In this document: positions 8,051 through 43,361 of the stretch, piece by piece
How the letters are laid out: the number at the start of each line of letters is the position of its first letter
Position numbering within the stretch: the stretch's first letter is position 1
Source of the DNA: Plasmodiophora brassicae
Taxonomy: Eukaryota
Assembly: GCA_036867785.1 (NCBI GenBank)
Contig: CP145421.1
Coordinates: 682,001 to 746,000, forward strand
Length of the DNA stretch: 64,000 nucleotides
Direction: 5' to 3'
Notes under the pieces: model-generated
The model's input: the letters and a program-made list of their open reading frames with translations, nothing else
The model's database searches: none
What the model was told of the DNA's origin: nothing
Position numbers and translations under genes: made by a program

Positions 8051-8659
8051 CATCCCTGCCAAACGCAGTCTCATCGCTTCGAGCGCCGATACGAACGCGG
8101 GCATGCCGTGCATACCAGAGTTTGACCTGCTCATCGCAGAGGTCGCGCCCGCGAACGGAGGTGATTAATCCGTCAGGCTCGCCGATGCAGCCTTTGTTGC
8201 ATGAGCGAACATTATATGTACAGTATGAAATATCGTGGATCTGGAGCGTTGTGGTGCGGGCGGAGCGGCCTTAAGGGGCATATTATCGTCACGGTGCGAG
8301 GGATCTTGGAGGCCCACCAAACGATGTGATTGACGTACATTTCGTTTCTTCACTGTGTTGCCCAGATCTGTGTACCCAGGCTAGGTTTTGACAGCGCAGT
8401 GAAGATGAGAAATGTACGTCGATCTCAACGTATGGTGTGCTTGAAATGCACTACAGGACCTTCGAGGTCTGTTGCCTGCCGCGCCGCCGTCGTCTCCAAG
8501 TGCGTCTCCGTTGGTCGTCCATTGTACAATATTTAGGGCGTCGTGTCATTGCAAGGTATACGCATGCACTAAACTCCGTTTCAGTAATGAGCCTGAACGA
8601 CGACCGGTACGACGATGTTCGTCGCTGGTTGGCCAATCCCAGTAACTTTGTCTCTTACC

Positions 8660-21683: not shown

Positions 21684-21789
21684 ACGCGCCGCCTGCCCAG
21701 GAACAGTCGACACTACAATGGTCTCTCTTGTGTTACAGGGTTCCTGTCCATTGGAGCGGCATTGTCGCCTTCTGTATAGTGCAGTGACG

Positions 21790-24307
21790 TCAGGCGACTT
21801 CGGTGCGTCGACGCCCCGACGGCGCCTGACGATTGATCAGGTCCTCGGCGGACGACGACCGCCGGAACTCGTGATCCGACTTGCTGCCGCTGCTGTTCCC
21901 CTTCTTCTCGGTCAACAGCTCCAGGTCGCGCGCCAGCATCAGGCTGTTCCTCCTGGCGAACTGGCTGCGTACCTGGAGCATGGCGACCGTCTTCGTCACG
22001 CTGCTGCGCTTGTGCATGACGCGGGCGACGAAGTTGCGGTCGAACTCCTCGTCCCGGGAGTGGATCAGGTCGAGCTGTCGTTCGCTCTCGACGGACGACG
22101 GCAGCTTCTTCACCTCGGCGATCCGGATCCTGGACCAGTTCTCGCGAACCGATAGCATGTTCCGCACCATGAAGTCCATGTTCTCGAACGCGTCGGCGAT
22201 GCAGGCTATCAGCGGGGCGGCGATGAAGTCGATGAAGTTCAGGGACATCTCGGCCTGCGAGTCACGCCGCCGGTCCATGTAGGGCGAGACGGGCAGGTGC
22301 ATCTGCCGCTCGAGGTCGCCCTGGTTCCAGAACTCGGCGATGCACAGATCGGACCAGCGTTTCGCCTGTGGCCACTCCTTGCAGACGTTGTTGATGTCGG
22401 CGCAGTGCTGTCGCATAGCCCCGGGTCAGACGCGCGTCGTGCGGAAACAAGAGCCACACAAACGGGACCAGACCATCATGATGTTCAGCGCCAGTTTGAC
22501 TTCTTTCTTTCGGGCCTCGTCGAACGTCGACGACAGGTTCGGTCGGGAGTCAGACGCGTGCTTCTTGTACATCTTCGCCAGGCAGTCAGACATCCGGAGA
22601 GACGAGGCGGCGGGCGCGGCCGCTGCGAGCAGTGATACTGACCTTGATCTTCTCGAAGACCATGTCGCCCTTCGCGACCAGTTCGAAGTGGAACTTCATG
22701 TCGGTCGCCATGATGCAGGACAGGATGACGGAGCGGACCTCCGACTTGATGGGCGACTTCATCTCCGCCAGGATGTTGTACTCGGGCTCGGTGAGTATCG
22801 AGTACAGCGTGGCGGCATGGTGGTTCTCCAGCACGCTCTGGTCGTTGTACAGCAGCGCTAGTTTGCTGCCAGTATTGACCTGCAACGCCACAGCGTTCAG
22901 TGACGCCCGGGTCAGGGCAGGCGATACCCGGCAACACGTCACCTGGAACAGGTTGTTCGTTCCCGGGTGCCCTATGTCATGGGCCAGGGCGGCCACCAGG
23001 AACCCGAGCTTCTGCCACCCTGCCGAGATGGCGTCGAGACCCGACCGTTTGTACATGAAGTAGCACGTCTGCAGTACGTCGACCCCATGGTAGAAGTTGT
23101 GGAACGGGTTCGTGTTGATGTACGCCTTCGAGATGCGCCGTATCAGGCTGAGCGTCATGTCGGACGTAACCTGGCGACGACGACATTGAGCGTTCCGGGC
23201 AGGAGGCGGGCGCGCCCGTTCGTCCGGTTTCGTACCGAATACTGCTGCATGACGCCGGCGGAATGGAAAATGGCGAACGCCACCATGTCCAGGTTCTCCA
23301 GGGAGTAGGCGAACACGTCAAAGTTCTCGCTGTCGAGGCCGCCCAGAATGCTCTCGTCGGAGATGCCCGGGATCGACAGACGATTCGGGGTCGGGATGCC
23401 GGAATCGCTGTTCGCCTTCGCCTCCGGCGTGCTCGGCAGCGGTTGTCGCGGTTGGTTGGTCAGCGAGAACGAGAACCTGGTCGGCCTGATGATCGACGAC
23501 CGCGTGAACTCGTTCGTCAGCCAGCGTTTCGCCTGGGTGTCCAGCCCGCTCTCCTCGATGACCTCGTCGTTGACGTCGTTGTGGATCACGAGGCCCTGCT
23601 GCCTGAACCGCATGACCAGCTGCAGAACGCGTTGGGCACAGGCCGCGTAATCGGTCGACTGCGACTCCCGATCGTCACCCGTTGTCCTGCACCGGCCAGA
23701 ACGGCGTCAGCATGGGGGGTGGGGCGTTCCGCTCCCCTCTGGCCGATGGGATCATACCTGTTGGCCGCATACTCCGTTTGGGCTTCCTCGTACTCGTCGA
23801 CGACCTTCATGATGGACGACATCAGCTGGTAGGCGTCGGTGGACGTCAGCGTTTTCATGTCCAGCAGCGTCCATTCGGCCTGCTCGAGCTTCTCGCGCAG
23901 CACCTGCATCTCCTGCGGGTCCACTGTGCCCAACGAGGATCAGCAACAGGTTGCCAGACGGGTGGGCCGCTTCGACGCTGCGTCGTACTACCTGCAGGCT
24001 GTGCCAGCGCTGGGAACAGGGTCTCCTTCAACGATCGCCGCCGTCCGCTGGACTGCTTGGCGTCCTTCGCGCATGGCGAATCGTACGCCTTCGTCTCGGC
24101 GAACTCGTCGTCCGCCTTGCAATTCACATCGATGTCGATCGTCGTCGCCGGCGCGACCTTCGGGCATCCACTCGGGCGCCACGCGATCGGGATGACGGCC
24201 TCTATCTGGCCCAGATCCGCGGGGACGGGATCACAAGCGGTATCGCGCTGCAACGCCGCGTCCGGCTCCCCTCTAGCGGCGGCTGGCTTCGAGAAACAGG
24301 TCCCCAT
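21790..24307 (-). CDS. 3',5'-cyclic nucleotide phosphodiesterase (class I), multi-exon
   Basis: NPFHNFYHGVDV, AALAHDIGHPGTNN, YNDQSVLENHH, IMATDM, HCADINN, EFWNQGDLE. Confidence 0.93.
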
Positions 24308-27378: not shown

Positions 27379-27653
27379 TGGTTGTATGGCAGACCCGCGG
27401 ACTCCGTGCGCCGATTCCGTGAGGCCGTGTCGATGTCGCGGACTGCGTCGACAGACAGCGATGCCGGTTCGGGCGAAGTAATTCTGCTTGATCGAATAAT
27501 GTTGTAATGAAGGGGTGTTTGTTTACAAGCCTGTTTTACCGTTCCGGAGCCATTGTCGTGCGCCTGTATGTGTCGCCGTCTGTCGTAAAAGAACGAAGCC
27601 TTCAAACATTTTGGTCCGAGCTTCCTCCACTTGATATATGGTGTCGGACATGT

Positions 27654-27853
27654 CGGCAGCTGCCTCTGCTGCCCGCGATATGTCATTACACTATCGTGCA
27701 GTCTCACGCGCACACGCTCGTGCCCTGTTCAACGGTGTGGTCGCCACAGATGGGTAGGTGTGGCGACCACACCGTCGAACAGGGCACGAGCGTGTGTGCG
27801 TGAGACTGCACGATAGTGTAATGACATATCGCGGGCAGCAGGGGCAGCTGCCG
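27654..27853. repeat. Near-perfect inverted repeat: 95-bp arms, 10-nt loop
   Basis: 27654-27748 is the reverse complement of 27759-27853 with three substitutions, all transitions. Confidence 0.95.
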
Positions 27854-28034
27854 GGACGGTCGGTCGCAGGGTCACGTTCGCAAGAAACTGCTTCGGGACG
27901 GCGCGGCTCGGTCCACGCAGTACGTATTTGCGATACTAAACGGCCGATACTTGTCAGATATTCGGCCGAACCCCGTTAGCGCCTTATTCCCAGTAGTGGT
28001 TGCGATCGCAACGCAATCGAGCGTGAGGAGAGGG

Positions 28035-28538
28035 ATGCTGCCGCTCCAGGCCGACCCCGACTATAACCCATTCTTCGATGACCCGTCGTTCTTTGCGGCA
28101 GACCCCGACGTCCAGGCGATCCTGGAATCGCGCGTGGGCCAGTATGGCGGTCAGGCGGACAGGCACGACGGCGTCGATCAGTACCTGCTGCACGGCGACG
28201 GCGTGTCAGACCCCATGCCGCTACCCACACCAAACGAACTTGTTCTCGGAGAGCCGATGCTGACTGCGGTCGACACGCCAAGGAAGAGGGGTTCGTTGAT
28301 GCAGCGCGACCCGACCGAGAATTTGTATTTCAACTGGACCATCATCAAGGACATCGAGAAGCGCTGCAAGGTCATCCGATGGAAGAAGAAGAAGATCAAG
28401 ATCCTGAACGGCGACTCCATCCCTACCAAGTACGAGCGGCGCCAGGTCTACGCCAAGAAACGCCCACGCGTCAACGGGCGCTTCATGTCGGTCAAGAGTC
28501 AGCAGACAACGACGATGCCCGAACAGTCCTCATCATAG
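28035..28538 (+). CDS. Intronless CCT-motif protein, copy 1
   Basis: C-terminal KVIRWKKKK..KYERRQVYAKKRPRVNGRF resembles the CCT (CONSTANS/TOC1) motif. Confidence 0.75.
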   Translation: MLPLQADPDYNPFFDDPSFFAADPDVQAILESRVGQYGGQADRHDGVDQYLLHGDGVSDPMPLPTPNELVLGEPMLTAVDTPRKRGSLMQRDPTENLYFNWTIIKDIEKRCKVIRWKKKKIKILNGDSIPTKYERRQVYAKKRPRVNGRFMSVKSQQTTTMPEQSSS

Positions 28539-28584
28539 TAGTACAGTAGTCGTCATCCTCCTCCTCGTAATCTGCGCTCATATC

Positions 28585-29723
28585 TTGCAGCCAATTTGCT
28601 GTTGCTTAGCGTTCGTGGAGGGAGACGAGTCAACATTTCCATCTGTTATGCATATCTCTCGTCGCCATTTGCCTACCATCTTCGATCTCTGCGTCCTGTT
28701 AATGCTGCAACCGCGCTCGGTTTAAAGTTCAAAAGCATGTAGAGCCTCGTTTTCGGCCGCGCGCTTCAAGGGCGATCGGGTGCCCTGCACCCGTCCTCGC
28801 ATCCACAATGGGTCCCTTTTTCTCGCAGTTCGCTAACAATATCAAGCAACCTTCTTGCATCCCGATAGTCGAGCGCGTTGACGGGAGAGTACGCGATTGC
28901 TGGATTTGTGATTCCGCTCACCGCCGACAGCGCCGTGCAAGCGAGAAAATACACGTTTCAGGTCAGGGTACCGGAGGTCATCTGCCAAATTCCACAGATG
29001 ATGTGGTTTGACCATGAGATCTTTAAATTCGCTATCACCATCGCACCGCGCAAGGTACTTCCCAAGTCCTCGCATTCACAACGGGTCCCCTTTTCTCGCG
29101 ATTCGCTGACAACATCAAGAAGGCGTGTTCGGAGTGCCTTCCCGGCCACGTCGATAATGATTCACTGCTGCAACAGTGCACGCAAGCACTCAGGATTACC
29201 GTTCGCGGTAGTGTTGAGTTCGGCCGGCAGTTGACAATACAGCTTGGGAAGTACCTTGCGCGGTGCGATGGTGATAGCGAATTTAAAGATCTCATGGTCA
29301 AACCACATCATCTGTGGAATTTGGCCGATGACCACCGGTACCCTGACCTGAAACGTGTATTTTCTCGCTTGCACGGCGCTGTCGGCGGTGAGCGGAATCA
29401 CAAATTCAGCAATCGCGTACTCTCCCGTCAACGCGCTCGACTGTCGGGATGCAAGAAGGTTGCTTGATATTGTTAGCGAACTGCGAGAAAAAGGGACCCA
29501 TTGTGGATGCGAGGACGGGTGCAGGGCACCCGATCGCCCTTGAAGCGCGCGGCCGAAAACGAGGCTCTACATGCTTTTGAACTTTAAACCGAGCGCGGTT
29601 GCAGCATTAACAGGACGCAGAGATCGAAGATGGTAGGCAAATGGCGACGGTTGATGCATAAACGGATGAACATGTTGACTCGTCTCCCTCCACGAACGCT
29701 AAGCGACAGCAAATTGGCTGCAA
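28585..29723. repeat. Long inverted repeat (about 480-bp arms, 176-bp spacer) containing a hAT transposase C-terminal fragment
   Basis: 28585-29066 mirrors 29243-29723. It encodes HHLWNLADDHRYPDLKRVFSRLH..GERNHKFSNRVLSRQRARL, which resembles the hAT dimerisation domain. Confidence 0.9.
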
Positions 29724-30336
29724 TAGCACTTTCAACGCTGACACCCCTTCGCAGTACGTCGAACTGGAATACAGTTGTCAGAACCGCACGCATTGTACAT
29801 GAAATTTGAACCAACAAAGACAGACGTCGAACGTGGCGTCGATCTTCAGAACTTGTACCATGCCTTCGAGTTCTATCGCCCTCGAAAGCTTGAATAACAC
29901 GACTTGGACACGGGCAAGACGGTCGAGCGTGCATAGATTCGAACCCCAACAAGTTTTCGAAGAGGATGAGATTAACGCGCTTCCTGTACTTCAGCAGGCG
30001 TTGAGCGTCGAGGAGTTCAGCCAGCCGTTGGACCGGATTGATGCCTCTGACAATATAGATGGACTCCGTTACAATCTTAGAGATCGTCGGGTACGTCCGC
30101 ACCAAGTCCATGCAGAACTTGGGGAGCGCGTGGGCTGCACTTCCGTAAGAGAACATGAACGCCTTGTTGTAGGCGCACAGACGACGAAGCGTTTCACGAC
30201 ACTGGGAGACTCGTTCCGAAAGGTCCTCATAGATGGACCCCACATAACGGTCATCAGAAGTCGCAAATCGGGGAGCATTAGGCCGCTCGTCAGACGAGCC
30301 GGCGGAGACAAAGCTATCAAGAGGCTGGCGAATCAT
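29584..30336 (-). CDS. Hypothetical protein or pseudogene; 3' end lies within the hairpin arm
   Basis: 250-codon open frame with no motif I recognise. Confidence 0.3.
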   Translation of the reverse strand: MIRQPLDSFVSAGSSDERPNAPRFATSDDRYVGSIYEDLSERVSQCRETLRRLCAYNKAFMFSYGSAAHALPKFCMDLVRTYPTISKIVTESIYIVRGINPVQRLAELLDAQRLLKYRKRVNLILFENLLGFESMHARPSCPCPSRVIQAFEGDRTRRHGTSSEDRRHVRRLSLLVQISCTMRAVLTTVFQFDVLRRGVSVESAIAANLLSLSVRGGRRVNMFIRLCINRRHLPTIFDLCVLLMLQPRSV

Positions 30337-30623
30337 CGCTCGTAGACGTCACTTGGCATCGACGAGAGTGTTCAGAAGGTTTTCCGAGCTTTCGCGTAGC
30401 AACCCCATAGAGCAGGGTTGAAGATATAGAGCGCACGGACCACTGGCCATTATATTCAACACCTGATGTGCCAATATTAAATAGAGGAAGTTGTTTACAG
30501 ACTCTCAGGCATACCTGTTTTCCAACGACGTGTGTTGTCCCACGCCGTCACCGCCAGTCTATACAGCCGTGGCATGGAGACACGTCCGACCGTCGCCGAC
30601 ATCGTGGCATCATTAACCAGCCA

Positions 30624-30856
30624 GGAGTTGCGGAGTGCACAACGGCGTTCGCGTGCTGCAGGGATGTGATGGCTGCCGACTACCTGACGAAGCCTGCCCC
30701 CAGCGCGTCGTTCCACACAAACCTAACCCTGGCAGGCATCATCGATACCTGTCCCAGGCCGTGTGCTGCTGGAGGGGGCGTGTTGAACAACATGTCCAAT
30801 ACGACCAGCAGCACATCCCTGCGGCAAGCGAACGCTGCCGCGCACTCCGCAACTCC
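30624..30856. repeat. Imperfect inverted repeat (about 45-bp arms, about 140-bp spacer)
   Basis: ggagttgcggagtgcacaacggcgttcgcgtgctgcagggatgtg (30624-30668) versus cacatccctgcggcaagcgaacgctgccgcgcactccgcaactcc (30812-30856). Confidence 0.8.
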
Positions 30857-30869
30857 ACGATGTTGTATA

Positions 30870-31378
30870 CGCAGCGACAAGAAGTTCACCTCCGATCCTA
30901 GAAGCTGGAAGCTGTAGGAATAGCCCATGCGGGGTGCAGCCTGATCTGGAAGAACTCTTCCAGTACTTGGTTTCAAACGTCGGGAACGCCATCAACGATC
31001 GGTGCATGGCACGCGCAAACAATTCTTCCAACATACTCTGCTCCTCTGACGGCATGGAATCCAACCACGAGGAAGAATTCGACGAATCAAAGGTCCTTCG
31101 AGACGAATGACTGACCGAACGTGCAGGAGTGAGAGTGGTGACCGCAGATGTAGTGGCAGTTATCGACTTGTTTCCGCTGACGAGGACGACGTTGCGCATG
31201 ACACCGGTGGAACCGTTCTGACGCGCCTTGCAAGTGTTAAAGTGGTTCCGCATACGGTCAACGTTCTTGACAACTGAGGTGTTGCAATAATTGCAAGCAC
31301 GGCGAGAGTTCTTTGCCCATCAAGTGGAGGAAGCTCCGGGCCGAAATGTTTGAAGGCTTCGTCCTTCTTCGGTCCCAT
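30870..31378 (-). mobile_element. hAT transposase N-terminal remnant (BED zinc finger), frameshifted
   Basis: MGPKKDEAFKHF..CNYCNTSVVKNVDRMRNHFNTC (BED-like), then EELFARAMHRSLMAFPTFETKYWKEFF..PT, typical of BED-hAT transposases; frameshifts present. Confidence 0.7.
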
Positions 31379-31525
31379 CCCAGCCAGCACGCTATTAATA
31401 TGAACGATCGACAACGACGACAGACAAGACGACGACGACCACTCGCACGCACAATAATGTCTCCGAGCCAAATCGTTCGCGCAACCGACCTATCTCACTT
31501 CAAGCAAGGCAAGCAAAATGTATTA

Positions 31526-33089
31526 TTATAGATTACGAAGCCATAAAATACGATAGAGTAGGTTAATAGGCCAGATAACTGAGGCCATAAAAGACTTTTT
31601 ACGTCGCGATAAGGTGACGCCAGCAATGTACACGAACAGAAAGAAGATGCTGCGACGCAACCGGCGAGCCTCGTTAATGCTCTTGTCAAGAGTGTCCAGA
31701 GACGATGACACGCAATGTAGAGGGGCCGATGCCGTCCCCATGAACTCTGGTGGGAATTGGGTCTCACAACGTGGTCTGATCCATTCAAGAACATCGTCAA
31801 ATAATCGCGCTCTGAGTTACTCTCGTTAGCAACACCAGGACGGTAACTCAAGACACAAGTGACACACCTGTCGACGTCGTTATGAATCTCGTGGAAGGCG
31901 CCCTCGAAAATACGAACGCTCTTGTCTGTGGAGCTAGCCTTTTCAACGAATTGCAACGACGCTTCGGCGTCCGTCAGCTGATCCGCGCTTCCATGGAAGA
32001 GTAGTATTGGGGTCTAACGGCACATTTAGAGACAGATATACCAATAATATGAATAGCTGTCGGGACCTTCATTTCTGCAGCCCGCTTCAACGTCTGGCGC
32101 GCTCCCCTGAGGCGACATTCATATATGAACGCAACCTCGGTATGCAGTTGACATACGAGAGGATCTGGAAAACAAGACGAACCGTAATAAACGGAAGGCA
32201 AAGACGGTCATTAATCGCAGCCGACGCGACACCGTCGATGGATGACAGTGAGCACGGGTCGACGTTCTGTCCGCAGGGTTAGAGCAGTTCCAGTCGATTC
32301 CGGCAAGCCTTACCGATGAGATAAGGAACTCTTGGAATAAAGGCCAAGACACTTTAAGAAGCAGAACCTTCCACCACTTTGGCTGGACGATACGCGACAG
32401 CCTCAGCCACGGCGAGGTGGCGATCACACCACGGAGGCGATGTTCAGTGTCGTGAAGCGCGTACGAAATGGCCAACATGCCTCCCATTGACTGTCCGTAT
32501 AAAAACACAGGCAGCCTTGGAGACGCCGCTGTCGCTATACGATGCAGTTGCCCAATGTCATTAATGAAATCCGCGAACAGGCCGTCTGCTCGAGGGCCCC
32601 CAGACAAGCTGAACACGGTAGTCAGCACCTCGGTACCAGACTACACAATGGAGCCAAACCCGTGTCCTCGGAGGTCGATCGTATGAACATCACATTGCGC
32701 ATCAGTCAACTCCTAGCATGCTTTGATTAAGGGAAAGTGCTGCCAATCTGAGAGCACGACAACGTACTTTGATCACGTGGTAGAACCGTCCGACATGCTC
32801 GCCAAACCTGCAAGCACGCGTTAACATTGCCAGTTGCGGTGACGTTTCCGGCACGATACCCATGGATTAATAGAACGATGCACTTCGCGGGCTGATCGGA
32901 CCTGCGGAACCGCTGGTAGAACAGTTTGCAGGCACTGACCCCGAGGATGTATCGGCGCTCGATCGGCGCGATTTCAACAATCGGTACCGATTTGATCTTG
33001 AGCAGCGTCGACGACTGGTTCCGGGGCAACGTTGCCCCGCCCCCGTATGACACGTTCAGCTTGGCTTCGTCGGCGTCGTTGGCCACCAT
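31526..33089 (-). CDS. Monoacylglycerol lipase / lysophospholipase (alpha/beta hydrolase), multi-exon
   Basis: LLIHG, DLRGHG, FLYGQSMGG (GxSxG), FHGSADQLT, FEGAFHEIHND. Confidence 0.9.
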
Positions 33090-33219
33090 AGCGCCACCAC
33101 GAACGCGTCCGACTGAAAAATAATATTCTGCGGCGCCGCAAAACGAATGTGGTCCGGTTCCACTGACTTCCGGTTCCACTGACTGGCCGTCATGCCACAA
33201 ACATTCCGGCGGCTGTTAC

Positions 33220-35736
33220 TTATGAAGACGGAGGGTAGACTTTATTCACGATGCCGATTGCTGTGGTCTTGCCGTCGCGGCGGAGCGTGAAGCGACCGAG
33301 TTGCCGAGAGACGTCCAGAGGTTCTAGCCTGAATTTCCGTCACAACCATTTAGAAACGTTCAGCGCGGAACCAGTGTCAAACGGACCCAATGGGACGCTG
33401 CATTTCGATAACGACAGAGGCGCGCATCGCCGATGTCAGTAGACGTGGATGACGTTTCAGGACCGCCCCTGTCGTCTTGTGCAGCTGGGCTCGCAATCTG
33501 GTAATGATGCAAGGCTCTTCGAAGTACTGAGCATGCAGGACCATCTACCAGAGCGTCAGCAGGATCAGGACAGGAGGGCAAACCAAACCGTACCTCGGAT
33601 CCCGCTAGAACTGGACGCGACATCGATTCCAGCGTGACGATCGTCGCTTGAATCTTCGATGTCATTTGAAGCGGACTGTTCACATCGCACAGAATCGATC
33701 CCATCATAACAACAGCTTCGTCACTGCAACCAGAGATGCCGATCTCGATCCGTTCACCAGGAACAGCATATTCGACCGCGTCGGTACCGTTTCGTAGGAT
33801 GGCTTTAACGGTCACGACTTGGTTTGCGGGTAGCAGCAGAACACGGTCTTGCACGATAACACACCCAGTCTGGACGATACCGGCGACAGCGAGGCCTCCC
33901 AGCGCTTGCGACTTAAATACATCGGAGCAGGACATTCGCATCGGCATTTCAAGCTGTCGGACAGGGACAGAAAATTCATCAATCATTTGCAGCAGATGGG
34001 GACCTTTGTACCACGATGTCAGTTCGGGAGCGGACGCCGGCTTCGTGAGGTTCTCTCCGAGCAGTCCTGAGCACGGTACGAAACGCACCGAATTCGGCTT
34101 GAATCCGATGCTCTTGAGAAACGGCGTGACCAGCCCCACAATCTCATCGTAGCGCGCTTGCAACCATCCCATCATATCCAGTTTGTTGACGACAACCACG
34201 ACTTCGTTGATGCCCATTGACTTCAACAGGATGGCGTGTTCTTTGGTCTGCCCGTCATCTTTGAAGCCAGCTTCGAATTCCCCGGTGACAGAGTCGACAA
34301 CCAATAACGCGCAATCTGCCTGAGACGCGGCCGCAAGCATATTCGGGACGAAATCGCGATGCCCAGGCGCATCCAGCAACGTGACCCGGCGGTGCTCCGT
34401 TGAGAAAACGTTCACAGCGACGTCAACAGTGACACCGCGGCTCCTCTCATCATCCGCGACATCAAGCACCCAGGCGAACATGAACGAGGCCTTGCCTTGT
34501 TCGCGAGATTCCTTCTCGAACCGATGCATGTCTTTCGAAGACACAGCTCCGGTCAAGTACAGCAGATGCCCCATCAACGTGGACTTGCCCGCATCGACGT
34601 GACCGCCGGCGATCATATTGACATTCGGACGTGATTCAGCCTCTTGTGAAGCGACAATCTTCTCAATCCGCTCCCGTCGCTTCCGAAGGGCTGCTTCGCC
34701 AAGACCTTTTACAGGAGCAGCAGCGGGTTTCCCTACGAGGATTTCCTTATCCTTGCCATCATCTCCAGTGGTTTCCACACGTTTTGGGGCACTGTGTTTC
34801 GCCTATCACGACCCTGTCAAACATCGGGTAACAACCAACGTAAACGTGTGTGCGCTTACGCGAAGCTGTGAACTGCGGGCTTTCTCGTCAGGTGACGGTT
34901 CTTTAAACTGAAACGGCGTAATTGACGACGCAGCAGCCTCCACGCCTTTGTCTGTTACAGCAGGTGGAATCGACGTAACAGGTTTCCTCGGGTCGAGGCT
35001 TGCACTTAACGCTTCACCCAGGAGGGAAACTGGTTGTGAAGTATGCGGAACGGTTTCCACAGCCGGTTCCGGGAGTTCCCGAAACGAGGGTAGTTCAATG
35101 ATTGCTTGACCTGGCTCTTTGGCCTCTTCCTGCATATGCCGCTGTTAAAAGTGGTCGGATGTGCAACCGTTGCAAACGTTAATTACGCTAGGCGCTAAAT
35201 CATGAGCGCCCGTCAGCACAGATTCGTCGAAAACGGGCGCCCTTGCTTCGTTGGCAGCTCCAAGAAGCATGGCTGTGAACATGAAATCAGGGACGCAAAC
35301 CATATCACATGCTGTGAGGATGGACCTGTAGCGGCATCAACGTCAAAATTGCACTGCTCGATAGCAATGCGAATTTCGGCGCGATCGATATCACCGACGA
35401 TTTCTAAAACGCGATCGATGGCCTCCCTCATACTGTCTGTAGACAACCCCCAGGATGAAATCAAGCGGGAACGGGAATTAAATAGAGCTAACCTGTCTTT
35501 GGTGGCTGCTGTGTCGAAATAAAACTCGACAGGTTATTATACAGCGGATTGGCTAGGTACGCCGCGCTGCCCGGTGACATGGCTGATGCCACCGGCGACT
35601 GCCCGTACGCCTCATCATAGTAGTCGTCCTCGTCCTCCTCGTAATCTGCGCTCACACAATCAGCCGGCGGACTTCCAACCCGGTGCCACCACTCACCGTC
35701 GTAGTCCAGGTCGCGAACTATTCGATGGCGCGACAT
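33220..35736 (-). CDS. HBS1: HBS1-like translational GTPase, multi-exon
   Basis: MSRHRIVRDLDYD..YGQS N-terminus, GHVDAGKSTLMGHLL, DAPGHRDFVPNM, NKLD, LGRFTLRRDGKTTAIGIV. Confidence 0.93.
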
Positions 35737-36385
35737 CCCTCACGTCTTGTCTGCAAACTCCGTCGCACGGCACGGGCCCGCTGCTTTCCTGTTGCAACAA
35801 GATAAAGCACATCCGCTGCTTTCCCGCCAATGAAGTGATATACCGTACTGATCCACAGAACGTTAGTTTTCTTTACTCAGAAATGTTACGGAAGGGTGCC
35901 TGTTCTGCGGGATCACAGGGCGGAGTGCATTGGGCACAGTGAAGGCATGGACGGGAAAGAAGAGCCCGGCCGAGAAGCGGTATTTCAACTGGATCTTCAT
36001 CCTTGCAGCGCTTCTCGATGTCCTTGATGAAGGTCCACTTGAAATACCGCTTCACGGTCGGGCTCTCCTTTCCCTGCGTCGCACTGCCATGCCTGCACTG
36101 TGCCCAATGCACTCCGCCCTGTGATCCCGCAGAACAGGCACCCTTCCGTAACAATTCTGAGTAAAGCAGACTAACGTTCAGTGGATCAGTACGGTATATC
36201 ACTTCACTGGCGGGAAAGCAGCTATTTTGTTGCAACAGGAAAGCAGCGGTCGCGCCATCGGATAGTTCGCGACCTGGACTACAGTATCTACGACGGTTAG
36301 TGGTGGCACCGCCGCACCGGGTTGGAAGTCCGCCGGCTGATTTTTTGAGCGCAGATTAGGTTCGAGGAGGACGAGGACGACTACT
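35619..36385. repeat. Inverted repeat (about 370-bp arms) duplicating the HBS1 5' end and upstream DNA, with a CCT-gene-like fragment at the apex
   Basis: 35619-36001 mirrors 36026-36385 with indels; the 24-nt loop is 36002-36025. Confidence 0.9.
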
Positions 36386-37715
36386 TGAGCGCCGGCGGAC
36401 AACGCTGTCTTGATGCCCCGAGGTCTGAAGGACTTCCTGGAGTCGACGAGCATCGTGAAAGTCGGCAAGTCGATTGCAATCGACAAGCGACACCTATGCA
36501 ACGATTACGGTCTCCGTGTCGACAGAACAGAATCCAGGATAGGGCTGGGGCAGTGTCGCGGCGCTGCTCCGAGTTCGTCGAGCTTGGCCAACTCGTCCAG
36601 ACGATTTTTCAGCAAGAGCTCCCAAAATTTGAGCTAATCCCTTAGTTGAACTGGGAAGCGAACGAGCTTTCGTCCGAGCAGGTGTGCTATTGTGAATTGT
36701 GGCGATTGTTCTACATGTCTTCAGGTAATATACACCGCTCTGGACGCGTACGCTAGCCTGAGGTCTACTTCCGCTTGGAGGCAATCCCAGATCCGACAGT
36801 TCACCTCACCATTCCGGGGTCGTCTCGCACTTGCAACGGCGCAGGTATTCCTGTTCCTGACATGGCAGTCGGCCTGCTTGCACAAGGCACTCATGTCGTC
36901 GTTGCTCGGGCACGTATTTCACAGTCGCAGCCCGCCATTTGGGAACGGACGAAGGTGACGAAAGGCCGCATTGTTGTCGACGTTGTAGAGGTAACTATTT
37001 CAAGATCTAAGCAATAGCTCGGCTATTGACCATCATAGGTTCTGGCTTCTGCTGCCGAAGCCAAATATCATAGGGACTCGAAGAGGACTCTGAGTTCCTT
37101 TTGGATATTGTTCGTTCGCGCTCTTAGTTGACATAACGTCGCTCCGCCCTACAATCCACCCACAAAGTATTTTTTCGTATTGAGATGAACATGGTCGTTC
37201 TAATTATTCGTTTATACCACAGAACAATGATGACGGAACTTCCCCTGATGTGAGCTCCGTCTCTGTCGAGTCAGTCGAAGGTAAGCGTCGCTGCACCCGT
37301 GCAATGCGTTCCTTTGTGATATGCGTCGTTAGAGTCAGGTGGCGAACCAGTGAAACGTGTCCTGCAAGACATATCCACATCATGAAAAGGGTGAAGATCG
37401 GGAATACTCTTCCGTTTTACCTGTACGGGTAATCGCACTTAGCGATGCGAGGACGACGAGCAGCGTATCAGTTGCAGGCCGCGTTTTTATTTCTCTCTTC
37501 TCACTATATTTCCTGTAGGTGATTAATAGCCTGGTTAGCGGCGGCGAGAATCCGCTGTCGTGGAGAATCCATCGCTGTGGCTATTTCCTTGACCGCGTTC
37601 GCCGAAGAAATTCTCCTCCAGGCCAGCTGGAAGAACATCTGAACCTTGTCTACAAGGCGTGTTCTGGTCTGGCAGACAATGAATGGTTCCGCACTGAGTA
37701 CTTATAACGAAGAAA

Positions 37716-38008
37716 GGCCATCCTCACCGCCGGCAGTGTAAAACGGGTACTCATCCCCTTCCGGATCACTGCGGCAGCCCTTTCGAACATGTTCCAGAAC
37801 TTTCCGAAACTCAGCGTGTGCACGATCGTCGAAAAGGGGCACGCTTGCTACTCAATGAATGATTCCGTCGTGGAGTTGCAGGCGTGCCTCTTCGACGATC
37901 GTGCACACACTGAGTTTCGAAAAGTTCTGGAACATGTTCGAAAGGGCTGCCGCAGTGATCCGGAAGGGGATGAGTACCCGTTTTACACTGCCGTCGGTGA
38001 GGATGGCC
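37716..38008. repeat. Hairpin of Zisupton-like transposase sequence (about 135-bp arms)
   Basis: 37716-37852 mirrors about 37872-38008; loop aatgaatgattccgtcgtg. Confidence 0.92.
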
Positions 38009-38041
38009 ACGGACCCATGTTGTATCGGTGCCACCGTGGCA

Positions 38042-38313
38042 TTAACTCCTGCGAGGCCAGCCACAACGTCCTGAAAAGGAAGTTCGGAACCATGAACGCA
38101 GGCGTCGCATTGACGCACTGCTTGATGCTGTGGCACATACAAGCCAAGGTCGGAAATGCCCAAGAACCGGAGAGCCGTCTCCGAAGGATTCTGCTGCGCG
38201 AATGTTTGTGCGCAGTATGTGCCACAGCATCAAGCAGTGCGTCAATGCGACACCTGCGTTCATGGTCCCGAACTTCCTTTTCAGGACGTTGTGGTTGGCC
38301 TCGCAGGAGTTAA
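38042..38313. repeat. Hairpin of Zisupton-like transposase sequence (about 99-bp arms, 74-bp spacer)
   Basis: 38042-38140 mirrors 38215-38313; the spacer is an inverted copy of about 40548-40621. Confidence 0.92.
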
Positions 38314-40088
38314 CCCTTTACCGTTTTTGCGACACAATTGCGTCGCAAATTCGGGATTTCGATTTTCTGACATTCATTGCGCAGACTGGTGAGGTTATTC
38401 GCATCTGAAAATTTTACTGGGCGACCCGACCATGCATTTCTCCAAATAAACGAAATTATAACTTCCTATCAAAATTCCATGAAAAGTTATCGGACATTGA
38501 AAGTTAGTCACGATCGTGTCTAGGACTGGTCAAAAGCAGTCCCGCCAAATTCTGAGCGTACTGTAGGTCAAAGCACAATGGCCGGCGCAGCAGATGTCGG
38601 AGGGGATGCTGGCATACCCAGACGACAGTACAAGTGCTCGTATTGCAAGGCGCTCGGTCACAATCGCATGACATGTTCGTCGCGGAAGGGGTCAGGCGGA
38701 GGTCCTGCGGGAGATCCATCTCTGGCAGGCAGTGGCAGCGCACCAGCAGCTCCAGCTCCTAACCGTACACCTCTAGGAGGTAATAGGCAATGTTCAAGTC
38801 GCGACAGATTTGCTCACTGGTCCTTGATGTCGCAGATAACGCCCAAGATGTCGGTGAGGGTCATGCTGACGACGACATCGGAGTGGACCAAGTCGATAGA
38901 GGCGAAGTGCTTCACGTCTTTGCGCCAGAAACCGACTCTGACGGCTCAGAATCCAATCCAGATCCGTACGAGGCCCAGCCAGTCGAGGTTGACGCTTCCG
39001 ATGATGACGGCGCCGATGATAACGATGGATCTGGCGTTGTTCAATTGGACGGTCATGGGCATCGTATTCGCGTACACGTTGGTCTCTGCGATACTGGCGC
39101 TAGCTGGCGACCTTGTAGATGAACGTATACGGGTGGAATATCGAACATCCAGAGAGTATCTAGGACGGAACGTTCCTGCTAGATATTCCAGAGTTTCTGA
39201 GCCGTGCCACGTACGGGTCCGCCCCGCACGAAGTTCGAAGGCGTGGACACACTAAGTGAGCACGACGCCGTCCACTTGATCTTTGGGCAGTTCCTGGATA
39301 CGTCCATGCTGAATACGATTGTACGTTGTACGAACATCTATGCTGCACAGGTCAAGTACGTATATACCGCGATTGGCGACCGTTGACTACTGCAGGGACT
39401 GAGAGAGTGGCTCGCTGTTGTCCTGTGCATGGGTTTGACCTAAATAACAGGAACGTAATATGCACTCTAATGAGCGGACTGATCTTGAACGGCGACATTG
39501 TTGAGGTTTCGTTCGTTATCACCCTTTGCGGCGTGTCTATCGCGTCAACCACAGCGGAACTCGGCCGATATGAACGCGACTTCGCCTCCGTCACCTCGGC
39601 TCGGGCATCGGCATCGGATAATTCGTGAGCTTTGGCGACCACTTTCCGCTTGGCATAGCGTATGCACTTGTCGCACGCGAGAAACCCGGAGCTAACGCCT
39701 TTCCTAGCCGTTCTCGTCGAGGAACCCCGTGGGTGCTCGGAACTCGCCAACCGTGTGTGATCCAGGAATCCGGACGGCCTTGACGCGGCATACCGCCGCG
39801 CTCTCATGATCTGTGGCACCAGCTCCCGTTAAAGCTGTTCCATTTGGACAGCTACATATAAAGTTATGGCTTGCCCAAATTAGCGACGCGATCGTGTCGA
39901 AGCGACTTTCCGCATAATCTAACTTTTGTTATAATTGTCGTCTGGATGGGCTGAAACCATCTGTATGCTCCTCGCGTCGTGTTCTATTCGAATCTGTTGG
40001 TCGGACGTTTCTACATGCGATATTCAAAAAGGTATTGCAGTTTCTATATGCGACACGATTGCGTCGAAAACTCCGAAGCCATAAAGGG
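38314..40088 (+). mobile_element. piggyBac-like element, degenerate, with TTAA target-site duplication
   Basis: TTAA (38310-38313) CCCTTTA ... TAAAGGG TTAA (40089-40092). The flanks rejoin into the uninterrupted sequence seen inverted at 40435-40464. Subterminal gcgacac(a/g)attgcgtcg repeats; IFGQFLDTSMLNTIVRCTNIYAAQ..WRPLT resembles DDE_Tnp_1_7. Confidence 0.85.
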
Positions 40089-40452
40089 TTAATGCCACGG
40101 TAGCACCGATACAACGTTTGTCCGTGGCCATCCTCACCGACGGCAGTGTAAAATGGGTACTCATCCTCTTCCGGATCACTGCAGCAGCCCTTTCGAACAT
40201 GTTCCAGAACTTTTCGAAACTCAGCGTCACAATCGTCGAAAAGGGGCACGCCTGCGACTCAATGAATGATTCCGTCGTGGAGTTGCAGGCGTGCCCCTTC
40301 GACGATCGTGCACACACTGAGTTTCGAAAAGTTCTGGAACATGTTCGAACGGGCTGCTGCAGTGATCCGGAAGGGGATGAGTACCCATTTTACACTGCCG
40401 TCGGTGAGGATGGCCACGGACAAACGTTGTATCGGTGCTACCGTGGCATTAA
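40089..40452. repeat. Second copy of the Zisupton-like hairpin (about 170-bp arms)
   Basis: 40089-40260 mirrors about 40280-40452, with the same loop sequence as the 37716 hairpin. Confidence 0.92.
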
Positions 40453-41964
40453 CTCCTGCGAGGCCAACCACAACGTCCTGAAAAGGAAGTTCGGGACCAT
40501 GAACGCAGGTGTCGCATTGACGCACTGCTTGGTGCTGTGGCACATACTGCGCACAAACATTCGCGCAGGAGAATCCTTCGGAGACGGCTCTCCGGTTCTT
40601 AGGCATTTCCGACCTTGGCTTGTAAGTACCTGTTATTAGCGATTGCTGCGTTCTGAATCTGTTTCCAGGTCGACTTCATTAACATGTATGCGACCAAGGT
40701 ATGGGGAGAGCCACAGCTCCCTCAGTTTTCAACCGCGCTCGATTGGCAATGGGACGAGTTGCGTCCGTATTGCCAGATGTTGCACTTTGGATGGGGAATG
40801 CGACCCTGCACATGCGTAAATCCCGCATAGAACGTGCAAGTGCATGCGCATGCTCTTTAATACTTGACGTCTTATAGGGGCGACCCACACCCGCTTCTCT
40901 CCGACGACAAGCGGTTCTTAGCCAAGTGCCAGGGCTCCACAGTTCCCTATCTTCCTGTGCACACTGCCGAAGAGGCCCATATGTCCCGAAAGGTACTGGC
41001 CGACTACCGGTACGCAGATCGCGACCGCTCGACTGGAAAGGACTTCCAGGCGTTGGCGTCTCTGTAAAACCAGCTGACGTTGTCGCTATGGCAGCAGGTT
41101 AACCACAATCGTCAGTGTAGTGAGCAAGGCAATTCTTGGCATGATGAAGGATCGGACCAAGACGCGCACCCTAACGTTTTTCTCAAATTTGCTATTCATC
41201 TACGCAGGTTGTTGGTTGTCTGACTTCATGGGATAGCTAGCTAACACGGTAACCAGGTATGATGAGCAGTTCCAAGCCGCAGTTATCAACCGCGAGTCCC
41301 GACGGAAAGCATCTCCAGAGACTTCCCCCTGTTTGATGTTCTGCGCGGGCCGAATTGACGACGTCCTACAGTCGTAGAGCCGGACACATTGCGTACTGTT
41401 AACTGAATTAATTCTCCGCCGTTTGATCAGTACCGTGAATGCGAGACCGGCAGCGAAGAATATCGCGAAGCGGCTCACGGGGACTCTGCGTAAAATTGAA
41501 TCGTACGACGAGAGAGATCCACAGCATGTTCAGGTGCGTGCTGGTTGCGCAAGGTTATCATTGCATTTAGGGTGTCGTGCAATGCAGAATACGGCGGCCA
41601 GCTCCGATGGTTTTCACGATCTAGAAGTGCCCTCCTGAGGGCCAATATAGACCAGAACCGCTTCCAGAAGGTCAACATGGTCTAGGAGATCCTCCACGGG
41701 CCCCAGAGGTTCTTCCAGAACGTCCACGTGATCTGCAGGCGTCCGGGCAGCACAGTAACGTATGATTTTAGCCCACCATTTAACGAAAGCGGCGCTCTGG
41801 CTTGAATGCGTTTCTTCAGGTCGTACATATACCGGCAATTGCGTTCGACAGCTCCACGTGTCTGTGCTTTCTGCAGGTCGACCAGCTAGCTCAGATAAAC
41901 GATCTAGCGCGTCGTATTCGGAAAGGCGTTGCCACGCCCTTAAGTCAAGAATGGTTAATGATGA

Positions 41965-42112
41965 CGACGACCTTCTTTGTGGCAAGCAAGGCTGCAGTGG
42001 ATTACGAGGCCATCAATACGGACGAGTCTACATTTCTGACACGCAAACGACTCGTCCGTATCGATGGCCTCGTAGTCCACTGCAGCCTTGCTTGCCACAA
42101 AGAAGGTCGTCG
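41965..42112. repeat. Inverted repeat: 64-bp arms, 20-nt loop
   Basis: 41965-42028 mirrors 42049-42112 with two transition mismatches. Confidence 0.93.
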
Positions 42113-42686
42113 AGGCGGCCCGCGACGCTGAAAAGAAAAGTCATAAGCAGCTGTTACTCCTAAGCATTTTACTGGCAATACAAGATTGAAATCGATTGAG
42201 ATCTAGTACGTAGATTTCCTAATAGTACTGGTGCCGATCTCCCAGCGCATTATCGACATTGGGTGTCGCGCGTATTGAGGCTGAGGGTGGCTACTACACG
42301 CGCAAGCAGTATTATTTTGGTCGTTTGTACTCAAACATTTTGGCCGACGCGCTGCGCGGCGGCCGGTGAAGTTCATTCGAGCGGCAGTTGAGCGCCAGCC
42401 GGTTGGCCATCCGACCAACAGATTCCCCGACAGCGATTTCGAGCGCCAGCGCGGGGCCTCAGACTAAAAGCGAACCCGACCTCCAAAATTGCGCAACAAT
42501 GCCTGCGGGGCGCCAAAACAAGGTTTGCCACTATTCGACGGTAACACGGCTGCGACTAGCGAACATAGGGCATCTCTGTGTTCAAAAGTGCCGACGATTC
42601 CTACAGTTCCTACAACTTTCTTTCCCTCTCTTCTTCTGGGACTTTTAGTCTCCTCGAGAACCACAGGAGGCTAAACGTTAGCCCTA

Positions 42687-43193
42687 CTATGATGAGGTTG
42701 CTTGTTCGGGCGTCGTCGTTGTCTGCTGACTCTTGACCGACATGAAGCGCCCGTTGACGCGTGGGCGTTTCTTGGCGTAGACCTGGCGCCGCTCGTACTT
42801 GGTAGGGATGGAGTCGCCGTTCAGGATCTTGATCTTCTTCTTCTTCCATCGGATGACCTTGCAGCGCTTCTCGATATCCTTGATGATGGTCCAGTTGAAA
42901 TACAAATTCTCGGTCGGGTCGCGCTGCATTGACGAGCCCCTCTTTCTTGGCGTGTCGACCGCAGTCAGCATCGGCTCTCCGAGAACAAGTTCGTTTGGTG
43001 TGGGTAGCGGCATGGGGTCTGACACGCCGTCGTCGTGCAGCAGGTACTGATCGACGCCGTCGTGCCTGTCCGCCTGACCGCCATACTGGCCCACGCGCGA
43101 TTCCAGGATCGCCTGGACGTCGGGATCTGCCGCAAAGAACGACGGGTTATCGTAGAATGGGTTATAGTCGGGGTCGGCCTGGAGCGGCAGCAT
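42687..43193 (-). CDS. Intronless CCT-motif protein, copy 2 (inverted relative to copy 1)
   Basis: Near-identical translation to 28035-28538 with a few substitutions. Confidence 0.75.
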   Translation of the reverse strand: MLPLQADPDYNPFYDNPSFFAADPDVQAILESRVGQYGGQADRHDGVDQYLLHDDGVSDPMPLPTPNELVLGEPMLTAVDTPRKRGSSMQRDPTENLYFNWTIIKDIEKRCKVIRWKKKKIKILNGDSIPTKYERRQVYAKKRPRVNGRFMSVKSQQTTTTPEQATSS

Positions 43194-43361
43194 CCCTCTC
43201 CTCACGCTCGATTGCGTTGCGACCGCAACCACTACTGGGAATAAGGCGCTAACGGGGTTCGGCCGAATATCTGACAATACAATGTATCGGCCGTTTAGCA
43301 TCGCGAGAAACTGCTTCGGGACGGCGCGGCTCGGTCCACGGAGTACGTATTTGCGATCGTT

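Follow-up and report, generated by a model that had tools for sequence, protein, structure and literature searches.

The window analyzed here is a 64,000-nucleotide (nt) stretch of the genome of Plasmodiophora brassicae (GenBank assembly GCA_036867785.1, contig CP145421.1, positions 682,001 to 746,000 of the forward strand; all positions below are counted from its first letter). Between positions 27545 and 43360, it contains a 16 kb island in which two normal genes seem to be surrounded by the decaying relics of DNA transposons and which carries eight short-range inverted repeats, numbered H1 to H8 starting from the left, five of which coincide with small-RNA loci listed in published tables. 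Two inverted copies of a gene with a CCT motif, CCT-A (27874-28541, plus strand) and CCT-B (42684-43360, minus strand), lie near the two ends of the island. The space between them is occupied by a decayed hAT-like transposase relic (29120-31378, minus strand), a Hydrolase_4 (lipase-like) gene (31494-33215, minus strand), a GTP_EFTU-domain translational GTPase gene (33250-35736, minus strand, 3' end approximate) that, following the initial annotation, we take to be HBS1, and a relic denoted element Z (36413-41208, plus strand) that is interrupted by a piggyBac-like insert (38314-40088, plus strand). The initial annotation, made from the sequence alone, had pictured the island as an assembly of fragments only, but both the Hydrolase_4 gene and HBS1 are intact and are spliced in all three RNA runs compared.

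All eight inverted repeats described in that annotation were found where it had placed them: H1 (27654-27853; 92 of 95 arm columns match), H2 (28585-29723; 470 of 484), H3 (30624-30856; 41 of 48), H4 (35619-36385; 267 matches, 11 mismatches and 5 gaps), H5 (37716-38008; 118 of 122), H6 (38042-38313; 96 of 99), H7 (40088-40453; 137 of 140) and H8 (41965-42112; 62 of 64). The arms are 48 to 483 nt long and 85 to 99% alike, with substitutions in every pair and indels in several, the loops span 10 to 176 nt, and the hairpins together account for 3418 of the 64,000 nt. Relative to shuffled sequences, the folding z-scores of six hairpins range from -10 to -34, and that of H4 is -51. A self-BLAST comparison of the window detected 10 short-range inverted repeats, 8 of them in the island, compared with none in each of 20 third-order Markov controls. 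The two that lie outside (8312-8440 and 21788-21831) are weaker. The former is a decayed hairpin (71-76% alike, with 76% over its 58-nt arms; folding z-score -10.8) with no listed small-RNA locus, the stem of which has six G:U pairs on the plus strand versus one; the latter is of low complexity. An Rfam scan gave no matches, and a metagenome scan gave no hits to another haplotype.

When the CCT pair and the hairpins were tested for flanking direct repeats, with the edges slid by 3, the longest were 0 to 4 nt; the target-site duplication that lies outside the inverted repeats of terminal inverted repeat (TIR) elements, miniature inverted-repeat transposable elements (MITEs) or Foldback elements is not seen for any of the hairpins or for the CCT-bounded block. 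Thus, judging from the sequence, with flanking direct repeats of at most 4 nt, the hairpins are not element termini, and the junction geometry agrees with the earlier proposal of fold-back or template-switch synthesis as opposed to transposon TIRs.

According to the main text and tables of a recent study of P. brassicae small RNAs (PMC13547706, 2026), 21-nt RNAs make up 90.3% and show phasing; two Argonaute proteins (AGOs) and a Drosha-like enzyme, PbDRL, are described, no RNA-dependent RNA polymerase (RdRP) or Dicer was found, and the source of double-stranded RNA (dsRNA) is called unknown. In vitro, the products of PbDRL are 21 nt long, dependence on the enzyme is demonstrated there for miR002 only, and the legend of Fig. 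2G mentions a palindromic region that makes miRNAs. PbDRL, instead of the Dicer assumed in the initial annotation, is the candidate processing enzyme. Our comparison uses the authors' locus tables (435 phased small-RNA, or PHAS, rows and 240 miRNA rows), as distinct from raw small-RNA reads; phasing was called there at a score of at least 10 and p <= 0.001. Three miRNAs of contig Ctg_12 were picked by eye from the 240 rows, and only these three were searched in the window. Pb-miR164 matches exactly at 41987-42007 (minus strand) in one arm of H8, with a single mismatch in the other arm, and Pb-miR165 matches exactly at 30832-30852 (minus strand) in H3, the listed locus starting 2 nt from the H3 edge; Pb-miR166 was not found in the window, an uninformative result given that its locus is predicted to straddle the left edge.

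The 150-nt precursor of miR164 maps to 41964-42113, that is, H8 plus one base on each side, and gives the offset for the other loci (window position = 412377 minus position on Ctg_12). With this offset, PHAS21-76 (P listed as 0) falls at 37717-38014, 98% within the H5 stem and starting no more than 1 nt from the arm edge, PHAS21-77 falls at 35678-36359, 100% within the H4 stem, and PHAS21-78 falls at 28512-29835, 86% within the H2 stem. All three PHAS loci in range thus lie on hairpins, and the phasing called by the authors at these three stem-mapped loci is the pattern of a long stem cut into phased RNAs of ~21 nt that characterizes hairpin RNAs (hpRNAs) and endogenous small interfering RNAs (siRNAs). 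Among 53,000 rigid shifts of the three loci, only 213 kept each of them at least 80% within stems, and these run from -60 to +152, around zero. Altogether, five of the eight hairpins (H2, H3, H4, H5 and H8) are listed small-RNA loci, and all five listed loci that lie wholly inside the window are on a fold-back; the tables list none in the other 60 kb, and Table S7 has no Ctg_12 row. According to the published tables, the hairpins are functional, at least as a source of small RNAs.

After merging of the PHAS and miRNA rows, the tables contain 545, 528 and 505 loci at gaps of 300, 500 and 1000 nt, respectively; the island holds 5, 5 and 4 of these in 16 kb, a maximum that is common to 4, 2 and 6 clusters. 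The island therefore ties for the densest small-RNA cluster in the published tables, but is not unique. Across the tables, 81 of 416 adjacent PHAS rows are no more than 500 nt apart, as two arms would be. The loci themselves are already known, having been published as miRNA or phasiRNA-like; the window adds the match of hairpins to the phased loci, a hairpin made from a host gene, and the order of events.

Four sequencing runs were compared with the region 29067-40087 as contigs, which give neither strand nor level. Splice joints indicate that three of these runs (X1, X5 and X6) are RNA, whereas X15 has no such joints and behaves like DNA; the window itself may derive from this run. All 30 bins of the region are covered by X15, the depth of which is ~95 where the sequence is single-copy, rises to 650-1300 across the piggyBac-like insert and reaches 2372 in bin 30539-30906. 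Because H2 and H4 are single-copy in this DNA run, the small-RNA reads assigned to them are unlikely to come from elsewhere. X15 contigs cross from HBS1 into the left arm of H4 and from the right arm of H4 into its flank; contigs over the right arm itself have a depth of only 2-7 and are not used as evidence. An RNA contig from X1 (29074-29704) covers the H2 loop and one arm with no differences.

At the left end of the island, H1, with 95-nt arms and a 10-nt loop, has no traced source and lies to the left of the CCT-A start at 27874, so that, of the proposed arrangement of all hairpins between inverted CCT copies, the inversion stands but the bracketing of H1 does not. The left arm of H1 (27654-27758) holds a short ATG-started frame with a possible GT donor in the loop and may be the first exon of some gene. 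CCT-A (open frame 28035-28538) is an inverted duplicate of CCT-B that includes the promoter, 93.5% alike over 678 columns, with 8 replacement and 5 silent codon differences; a 57-nt piece of its promoter (27878-27934) lies between short inverted words and has the opposite orientation in CCT-B. CCT-B (frame 42687-43190) is located directly behind the stop of the upstream gene, and its letters are present on an RNA contig; it is probably the native gene. The Pfam CCT model matches both copies just under the curated cut-off (24.2 versus 28.4 bits; E 3.5e-05), and a word-based search with 11 candidates found no CCT-motif relative beyond the window's own protein; the motif sits in a rhizarian orphan protein. 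The end of CCT-A is joined, through 14 letters common to both, to an antisense HBS1 piece (28528-28580, plus strand, from 35610-35654) that continues for ~50 nt and is followed by H2.

H2 consists of 483-nt arms derived from the hAT-like relic and a 176-nt loop; the loop contains an older 54-nt arm relic (87%), which implies that this spot folded twice. The hAT-like relic itself is transcribed, and is single-copy in the DNA run except for a high-copy insert near 30516-30627; a second, 52-nt copy of its 5' coding end (27584-27635, plus strand) is inverted relative to 31319-31371. Its family name is a lead only: ZBED1, DUF659 and FAM200 appear among its Atlas neighbours at 0.85-0.86, no transposase domain was detected by Pfam in six read-through frames of two relic regions, and a word-based protein search with 512 candidates, a weak negative, found no relative. 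H3, with 48-nt arms that are 85% alike, lies within this relic. The fragment at ~30516-30627 is inserted at the left edge of H3; the X15 bin there has ~25 times the single-copy depth, and other copies of the fragment run on into different sequence. To the right of H3, at 30871-31071, RNA contigs from X5 and X6 carry eight common substitutions and several indels, while the same contigs match 29343-30465 almost exactly; they possibly represent another haplotype of the relic, perhaps one that lacks H3.

In the middle of the island, H4 is built on a live gene. Its left arm is the start of HBS1 (ATG at 35736), including the first intron (joint 35645-35697) and ~215 nt upstream, and its right arm is an inverted copy of this start from which the ATG has been lost. 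The loop (35953-36074) contains a 62-nt CCT fragment that is itself folded and, at one telling site, is nearer to CCT-A. This captured piece is contiguous with neither arm, and the earlier statement that the spacer continues one arm accordingly fails for H4. The HBS1 piece at CCT-A and the CCT piece in H4 together imply exchange in both directions across 7 kb. The right arm of H4 contains seven 21-mers exactly antisense to the spliced HBS1 mRNA; given that HBS1 RNA is present, the gene would at most be tuned by RNAs from H4. A connection of HBS1 with RNAi clean-up is probably coincidental and was not counted as evidence. The stretch upstream of the ATG (35736-35950) is intron-like and could represent either an intron in the 5' UTR or the remaining end of a neighbouring gene that has been lost.

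In the right part, H5 (122-nt arms), H6 (99-nt arms) and H7 (140-nt arms) all derive from element Z, a relic that includes alternating-orientation copies of one ~350-nt piece. Searches with this relic gave 193 relatives at E <= 0.001, among them a P. brassicae paralogue, and a profile built from 63 relatives maps colinearly onto it; a word-based protein search with the element Z pieces (six candidates, a weak negative) found none. Among 27 relatives scanned, 11 carry DUF6729, 17 carry a 3'-5' exonuclease domain and none matches the KDZ family. Zisupton/KDZ elements are marked by the KDZ transposase domain and an 8-bp target duplication, according to excerpts of a published description (PMC12730594); the relic's ends were not located, and a Zisupton-like source, as suggested in the initial annotation, is not supported. 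Proteins with DUF6729 and a 3'-5' exonuclease domain are widespread in eukaryotes (fungi, protists), 1000-1500 amino acids long and in some cases equipped with an OTU domain. From the decay of element Z and its extra copy, this looks like an unnamed mobile-element family; in the literature searched, no paper mentions DUF6729.

The 1775-nt insert is flanked on both sides by TTAA and ends in CCCTTTA..TAAAGGG, a combination of TTAA duplication and CCC..GGG inverted ends that we take to be the hallmark of piggyBac elements. It has several copies in the DNA run and yields spliced plus-strand RNA (joint 38777-38834). It contains a zinc-knuckle frame (38524-39255) and has no listed small-RNA locus; six read-through frames gave no match to the Pfam family DDE_Tnp_1_7, and the likeness to a piggyBac transposase was judged by eye. 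The right arm of H6 stops at the left TTAA, and the left arm of H7 begins at the right TTAA and continues the same inverted copy. Compared with the downstream plus-oriented copy, the insert flanks match at 177 of 182 (left) and 161 of 170 (right) positions and meet at the TTAA of that copy, which implies that the H6 right arm and the H7 left arm once formed a single ~350-nt inverted copy between two direct copies, into which the insert came later. The element Z copies accordingly follow a + - + order, like an inverted triplication, and the number of independent fold-back events is about six rather than eight. H5 is a repeat of the stem and loop of H7 (425 nt, 94.6%). Among the four H5 and H7 arms, two loop-proximal columns split left versus right whereas two distal columns split H5 versus H7, a pattern that calls for arm-to-arm copying or recurrent change. 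In the RNA run X5, one contig joins 37677 to 37887 through 14 other letters, with several percent divergence nearby; it represents an unfolded copy of element Z that is present as RNA, and, as letters are mixed in X15, a second locus is more likely than an allele. H8, with 64-nt arms and a 20-nt loop, has no traced source; its assignment as a hAT end was dropped, and homology to element Z ends at 41208, with nothing found for 41208-42028.

We consider it probable that these structures arose when DNA folded back during replication or repair within decaying relics of DNA transposons, and that their read-through transcription followed by dicing gives rise to the 21-nt RNAs. Under this scenario, broken or stalled DNA ends would repeatedly fold back or switch template at short shared words, producing short inverted duplications. 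We infer repair of this kind from the geometry, namely, the loops of 10-176 nt, the 14-letter join and the older stems nested in H2 and H4; the differing arm identities, together with the nested stems, imply several events of different age. Polymerases reading through from neighbouring promoters would then place both arms in one RNA that forms a long stem. Both miR164 and miR165 lie in minus orientation, each following a gene of the same strand (H8 is ~570 nt behind CCT-B), H3 and H2 lie behind the lipase gene and the hAT-like relic's own start, and the HBS1 promoter copy in the right arm of H4 faces element Z and may drive H5. PbDRL would cut the stems into phased 21-nt RNAs for PbAGO1/2, such that the hairpins would supply dsRNA without an RdRP. 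Such RNAs would naturally target further copies of the elements they derive from, with the HBS1 and CCT mRNAs as accidental targets.

Alternatively, the island could be a selected, dedicated silencing cluster, an archive of transposons in which fold-backs are kept for immunity, like gathered Mu killer loci. Its shared rank as the densest 16 kb for listed small-RNA loci is compatible with such a role, as are the repeated folding of the same spots, the unfolded, transcribed element Z copy, which is a possible target, and two sites at which both arms of one H5/H7 copy carry the change (by arm-to-arm copying or recurrent change). These mirrored changes are limited to two sites, however, and conversion can also be neutral, while clustering is expected wherever relics gather. 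Moreover, folding has also affected host genes, the island is divided by two normal genes, the piggyBac-like insert broke the longest element Z stem, and the arm mismatches show no G:U bias to one strand (16 versus 14, with 17 others). We thus regard a dedicated cluster as unlikely, and the single bracketed unit of the initial annotation is not borne out, given the lack of a convincing target-site duplication at the CCT copies, the folded host genes and the 2-6 equally dense clusters; the two options offered there, an siRNA locus and a hotspot of fold-back repair, appear to hold jointly. It is more doubtful still that the hairpins are inert scars onto which small RNAs from sense/antisense overlap or from other copies merely map. 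Such an origin would fit the promoters that face each other across H2, the 2-3 near-identical copies of H5 in the DNA run and the miR165 locus, which reaches ~31255, ~400 nt past any stem found. It would not account for the start of PHAS21-76 within 1 nt of the H5 edge, the confinement of PHAS21-77 to the single-copy H4, the coincidence of the miR164 precursor with H8, or the lack of listed loci in the other 60 kb and on the multi-copy transcribed insert.

Two long inverted copies flanking a region could also delimit a composite or Foldback-type mobile element, comprising the 15.5 kb between CCT-A and CCT-B with the hairpins as termini. This reading is very improbable and already largely refuted: the best direct repeat around it measures 4 nt and does not sit at the edges, CCT-B is in an ordinary gene context, H1 lies outside, the arms are internal coding pieces, and the DNA run shows the genes inside to be single-copy. 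Amplification chimeras likewise give short-loop inverted repeats, and the DNA run compared may be the window's own source, but an amplification or assembly artefact is the least credible of the explanations considered, in view of the substitutions in every arm pair and indels in several, the transposon inserted into one inverted copy, the RNA contig across the H2 loop junction, the DNA contigs that enter both H4 arms, and the published small-RNA loci on the stems.

Several observations weigh against fold-backs in relics as the source of the small RNAs, starting with the extension of the miR165 locus beyond the stem. The three PHAS loci were placed by offset and not by sequence, and, miRNA loci being hairpins by definition, these three are the only loci that test the idea. 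The strong stems H1, H6 and H7 have no listed locus, although 78,890 siRNAs are untabulated and silence of these stems does not follow. Among the contigs seen for 29067-40087, no single RNA contig contains both arms of one hairpin. No perfectly complementary predicted target stood out in the published rows inspected for miR164 (6 of 6) and miR165 (22 of 23), and the absence of a G:U bias to one strand leaves no sign of selection on an RNA stem. Finally, because HBS1 and the second element Z copy are present as RNA, any silencing must be incomplete.

Among known systems, the closest parallels are Mu killer (PMC3440606) and the Ac/Ds composite insertions (10.1101/2020.01.07.897926) which, judging from excerpts of these reports, share with the island the inverted duplication of transposon sequence, part of a transposase gene in those cases and, here, pieces of the hAT-like relic (H2 and H3; the family name is a lead only) and of element Z (H5-H7), and a proposed route from flanking-promoter read-through to hairpin RNA and 21-22-nt siRNAs. 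The plant cases, however, are single loci with kilobase arms and transposon termini, in a host with Dicers and RdRPs, and heritable silencing has been demonstrated; the island contains many stems of 48-483 nt made of internal fragments from several sources, small RNAs from its arms are known from published tables only, and silencing of a target is putative. Target silencing being the defining trait of Mu killer, we do not file the island as a member of that group. Drosophila hpRNA loci (PMC10317233, as excerpted) are likewise inverted repeats of recent origin, which yield endogenous siRNAs although no RdRP is involved and whose sequence can be complementary to host genes; there, targets and phenotypes have been demonstrated and Dicer-2 is the enzyme, whereas here the candidate enzyme is Drosha-like and one arm of H4 is the live gene's own start. 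With respect to origin, fold-back insertions at yeast breaks (PMC11724301) and origin-dependent inverted-repeat amplification (ODIRA) triplications (PMC10766183) are similar, to the extent of the excerpts, in their short-loop inverted copies of adjacent DNA, microhomology switches, pieces captured nearby and + - + arrangement, but the yeast fold-backs are mostly 5-34 bp and the ODIRA amplicons gene-sized, compared with 50-500 nt here, in copies of different ages fixed in a natural genome. In PMC13547706 itself, five of the hairpins are listed loci (miR164 and miR165 by sequence; PHAS21-76, -77 and -78 by position), but the siRNA precursor is left unknown and the main text, in which the word 'inverted' does not occur, contains no fold-back description. 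A fold-back origin of these loci was not found in the literature searched, which included the main text of the pangenome preprint and did not cover subscription papers.

P. brassicae, the agent of clubroot, is a major crop parasite for which the source of dsRNA has been left open, and fold-backs offer a concrete answer. A read that originates in one arm is antisense to the other arm, which would explain the published opposite-strand signal with its 2-nt offset. A bolder proposal, which we put forward tentatively, is that fold-backs replaced the RdRP in this organism, so that most of its several hundred phased-siRNA loci would be short inverted duplications born of transposon breakage, each family vaccinating the genome against itself; the same process would sometimes fold the start of a live gene, as with HBS1, and yield siRNAs that are made in cis and directed at the mRNA and promoter of a housekeeping gene. 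If fold-backs are a general source of dsRNA, they would amount to a way of controlling transposons by rearranging DNA, in a supergroup of eukaryotes that has received little study, and many of the listed 'miRNAs' would be hairpin siRNAs made from transposon scrap.

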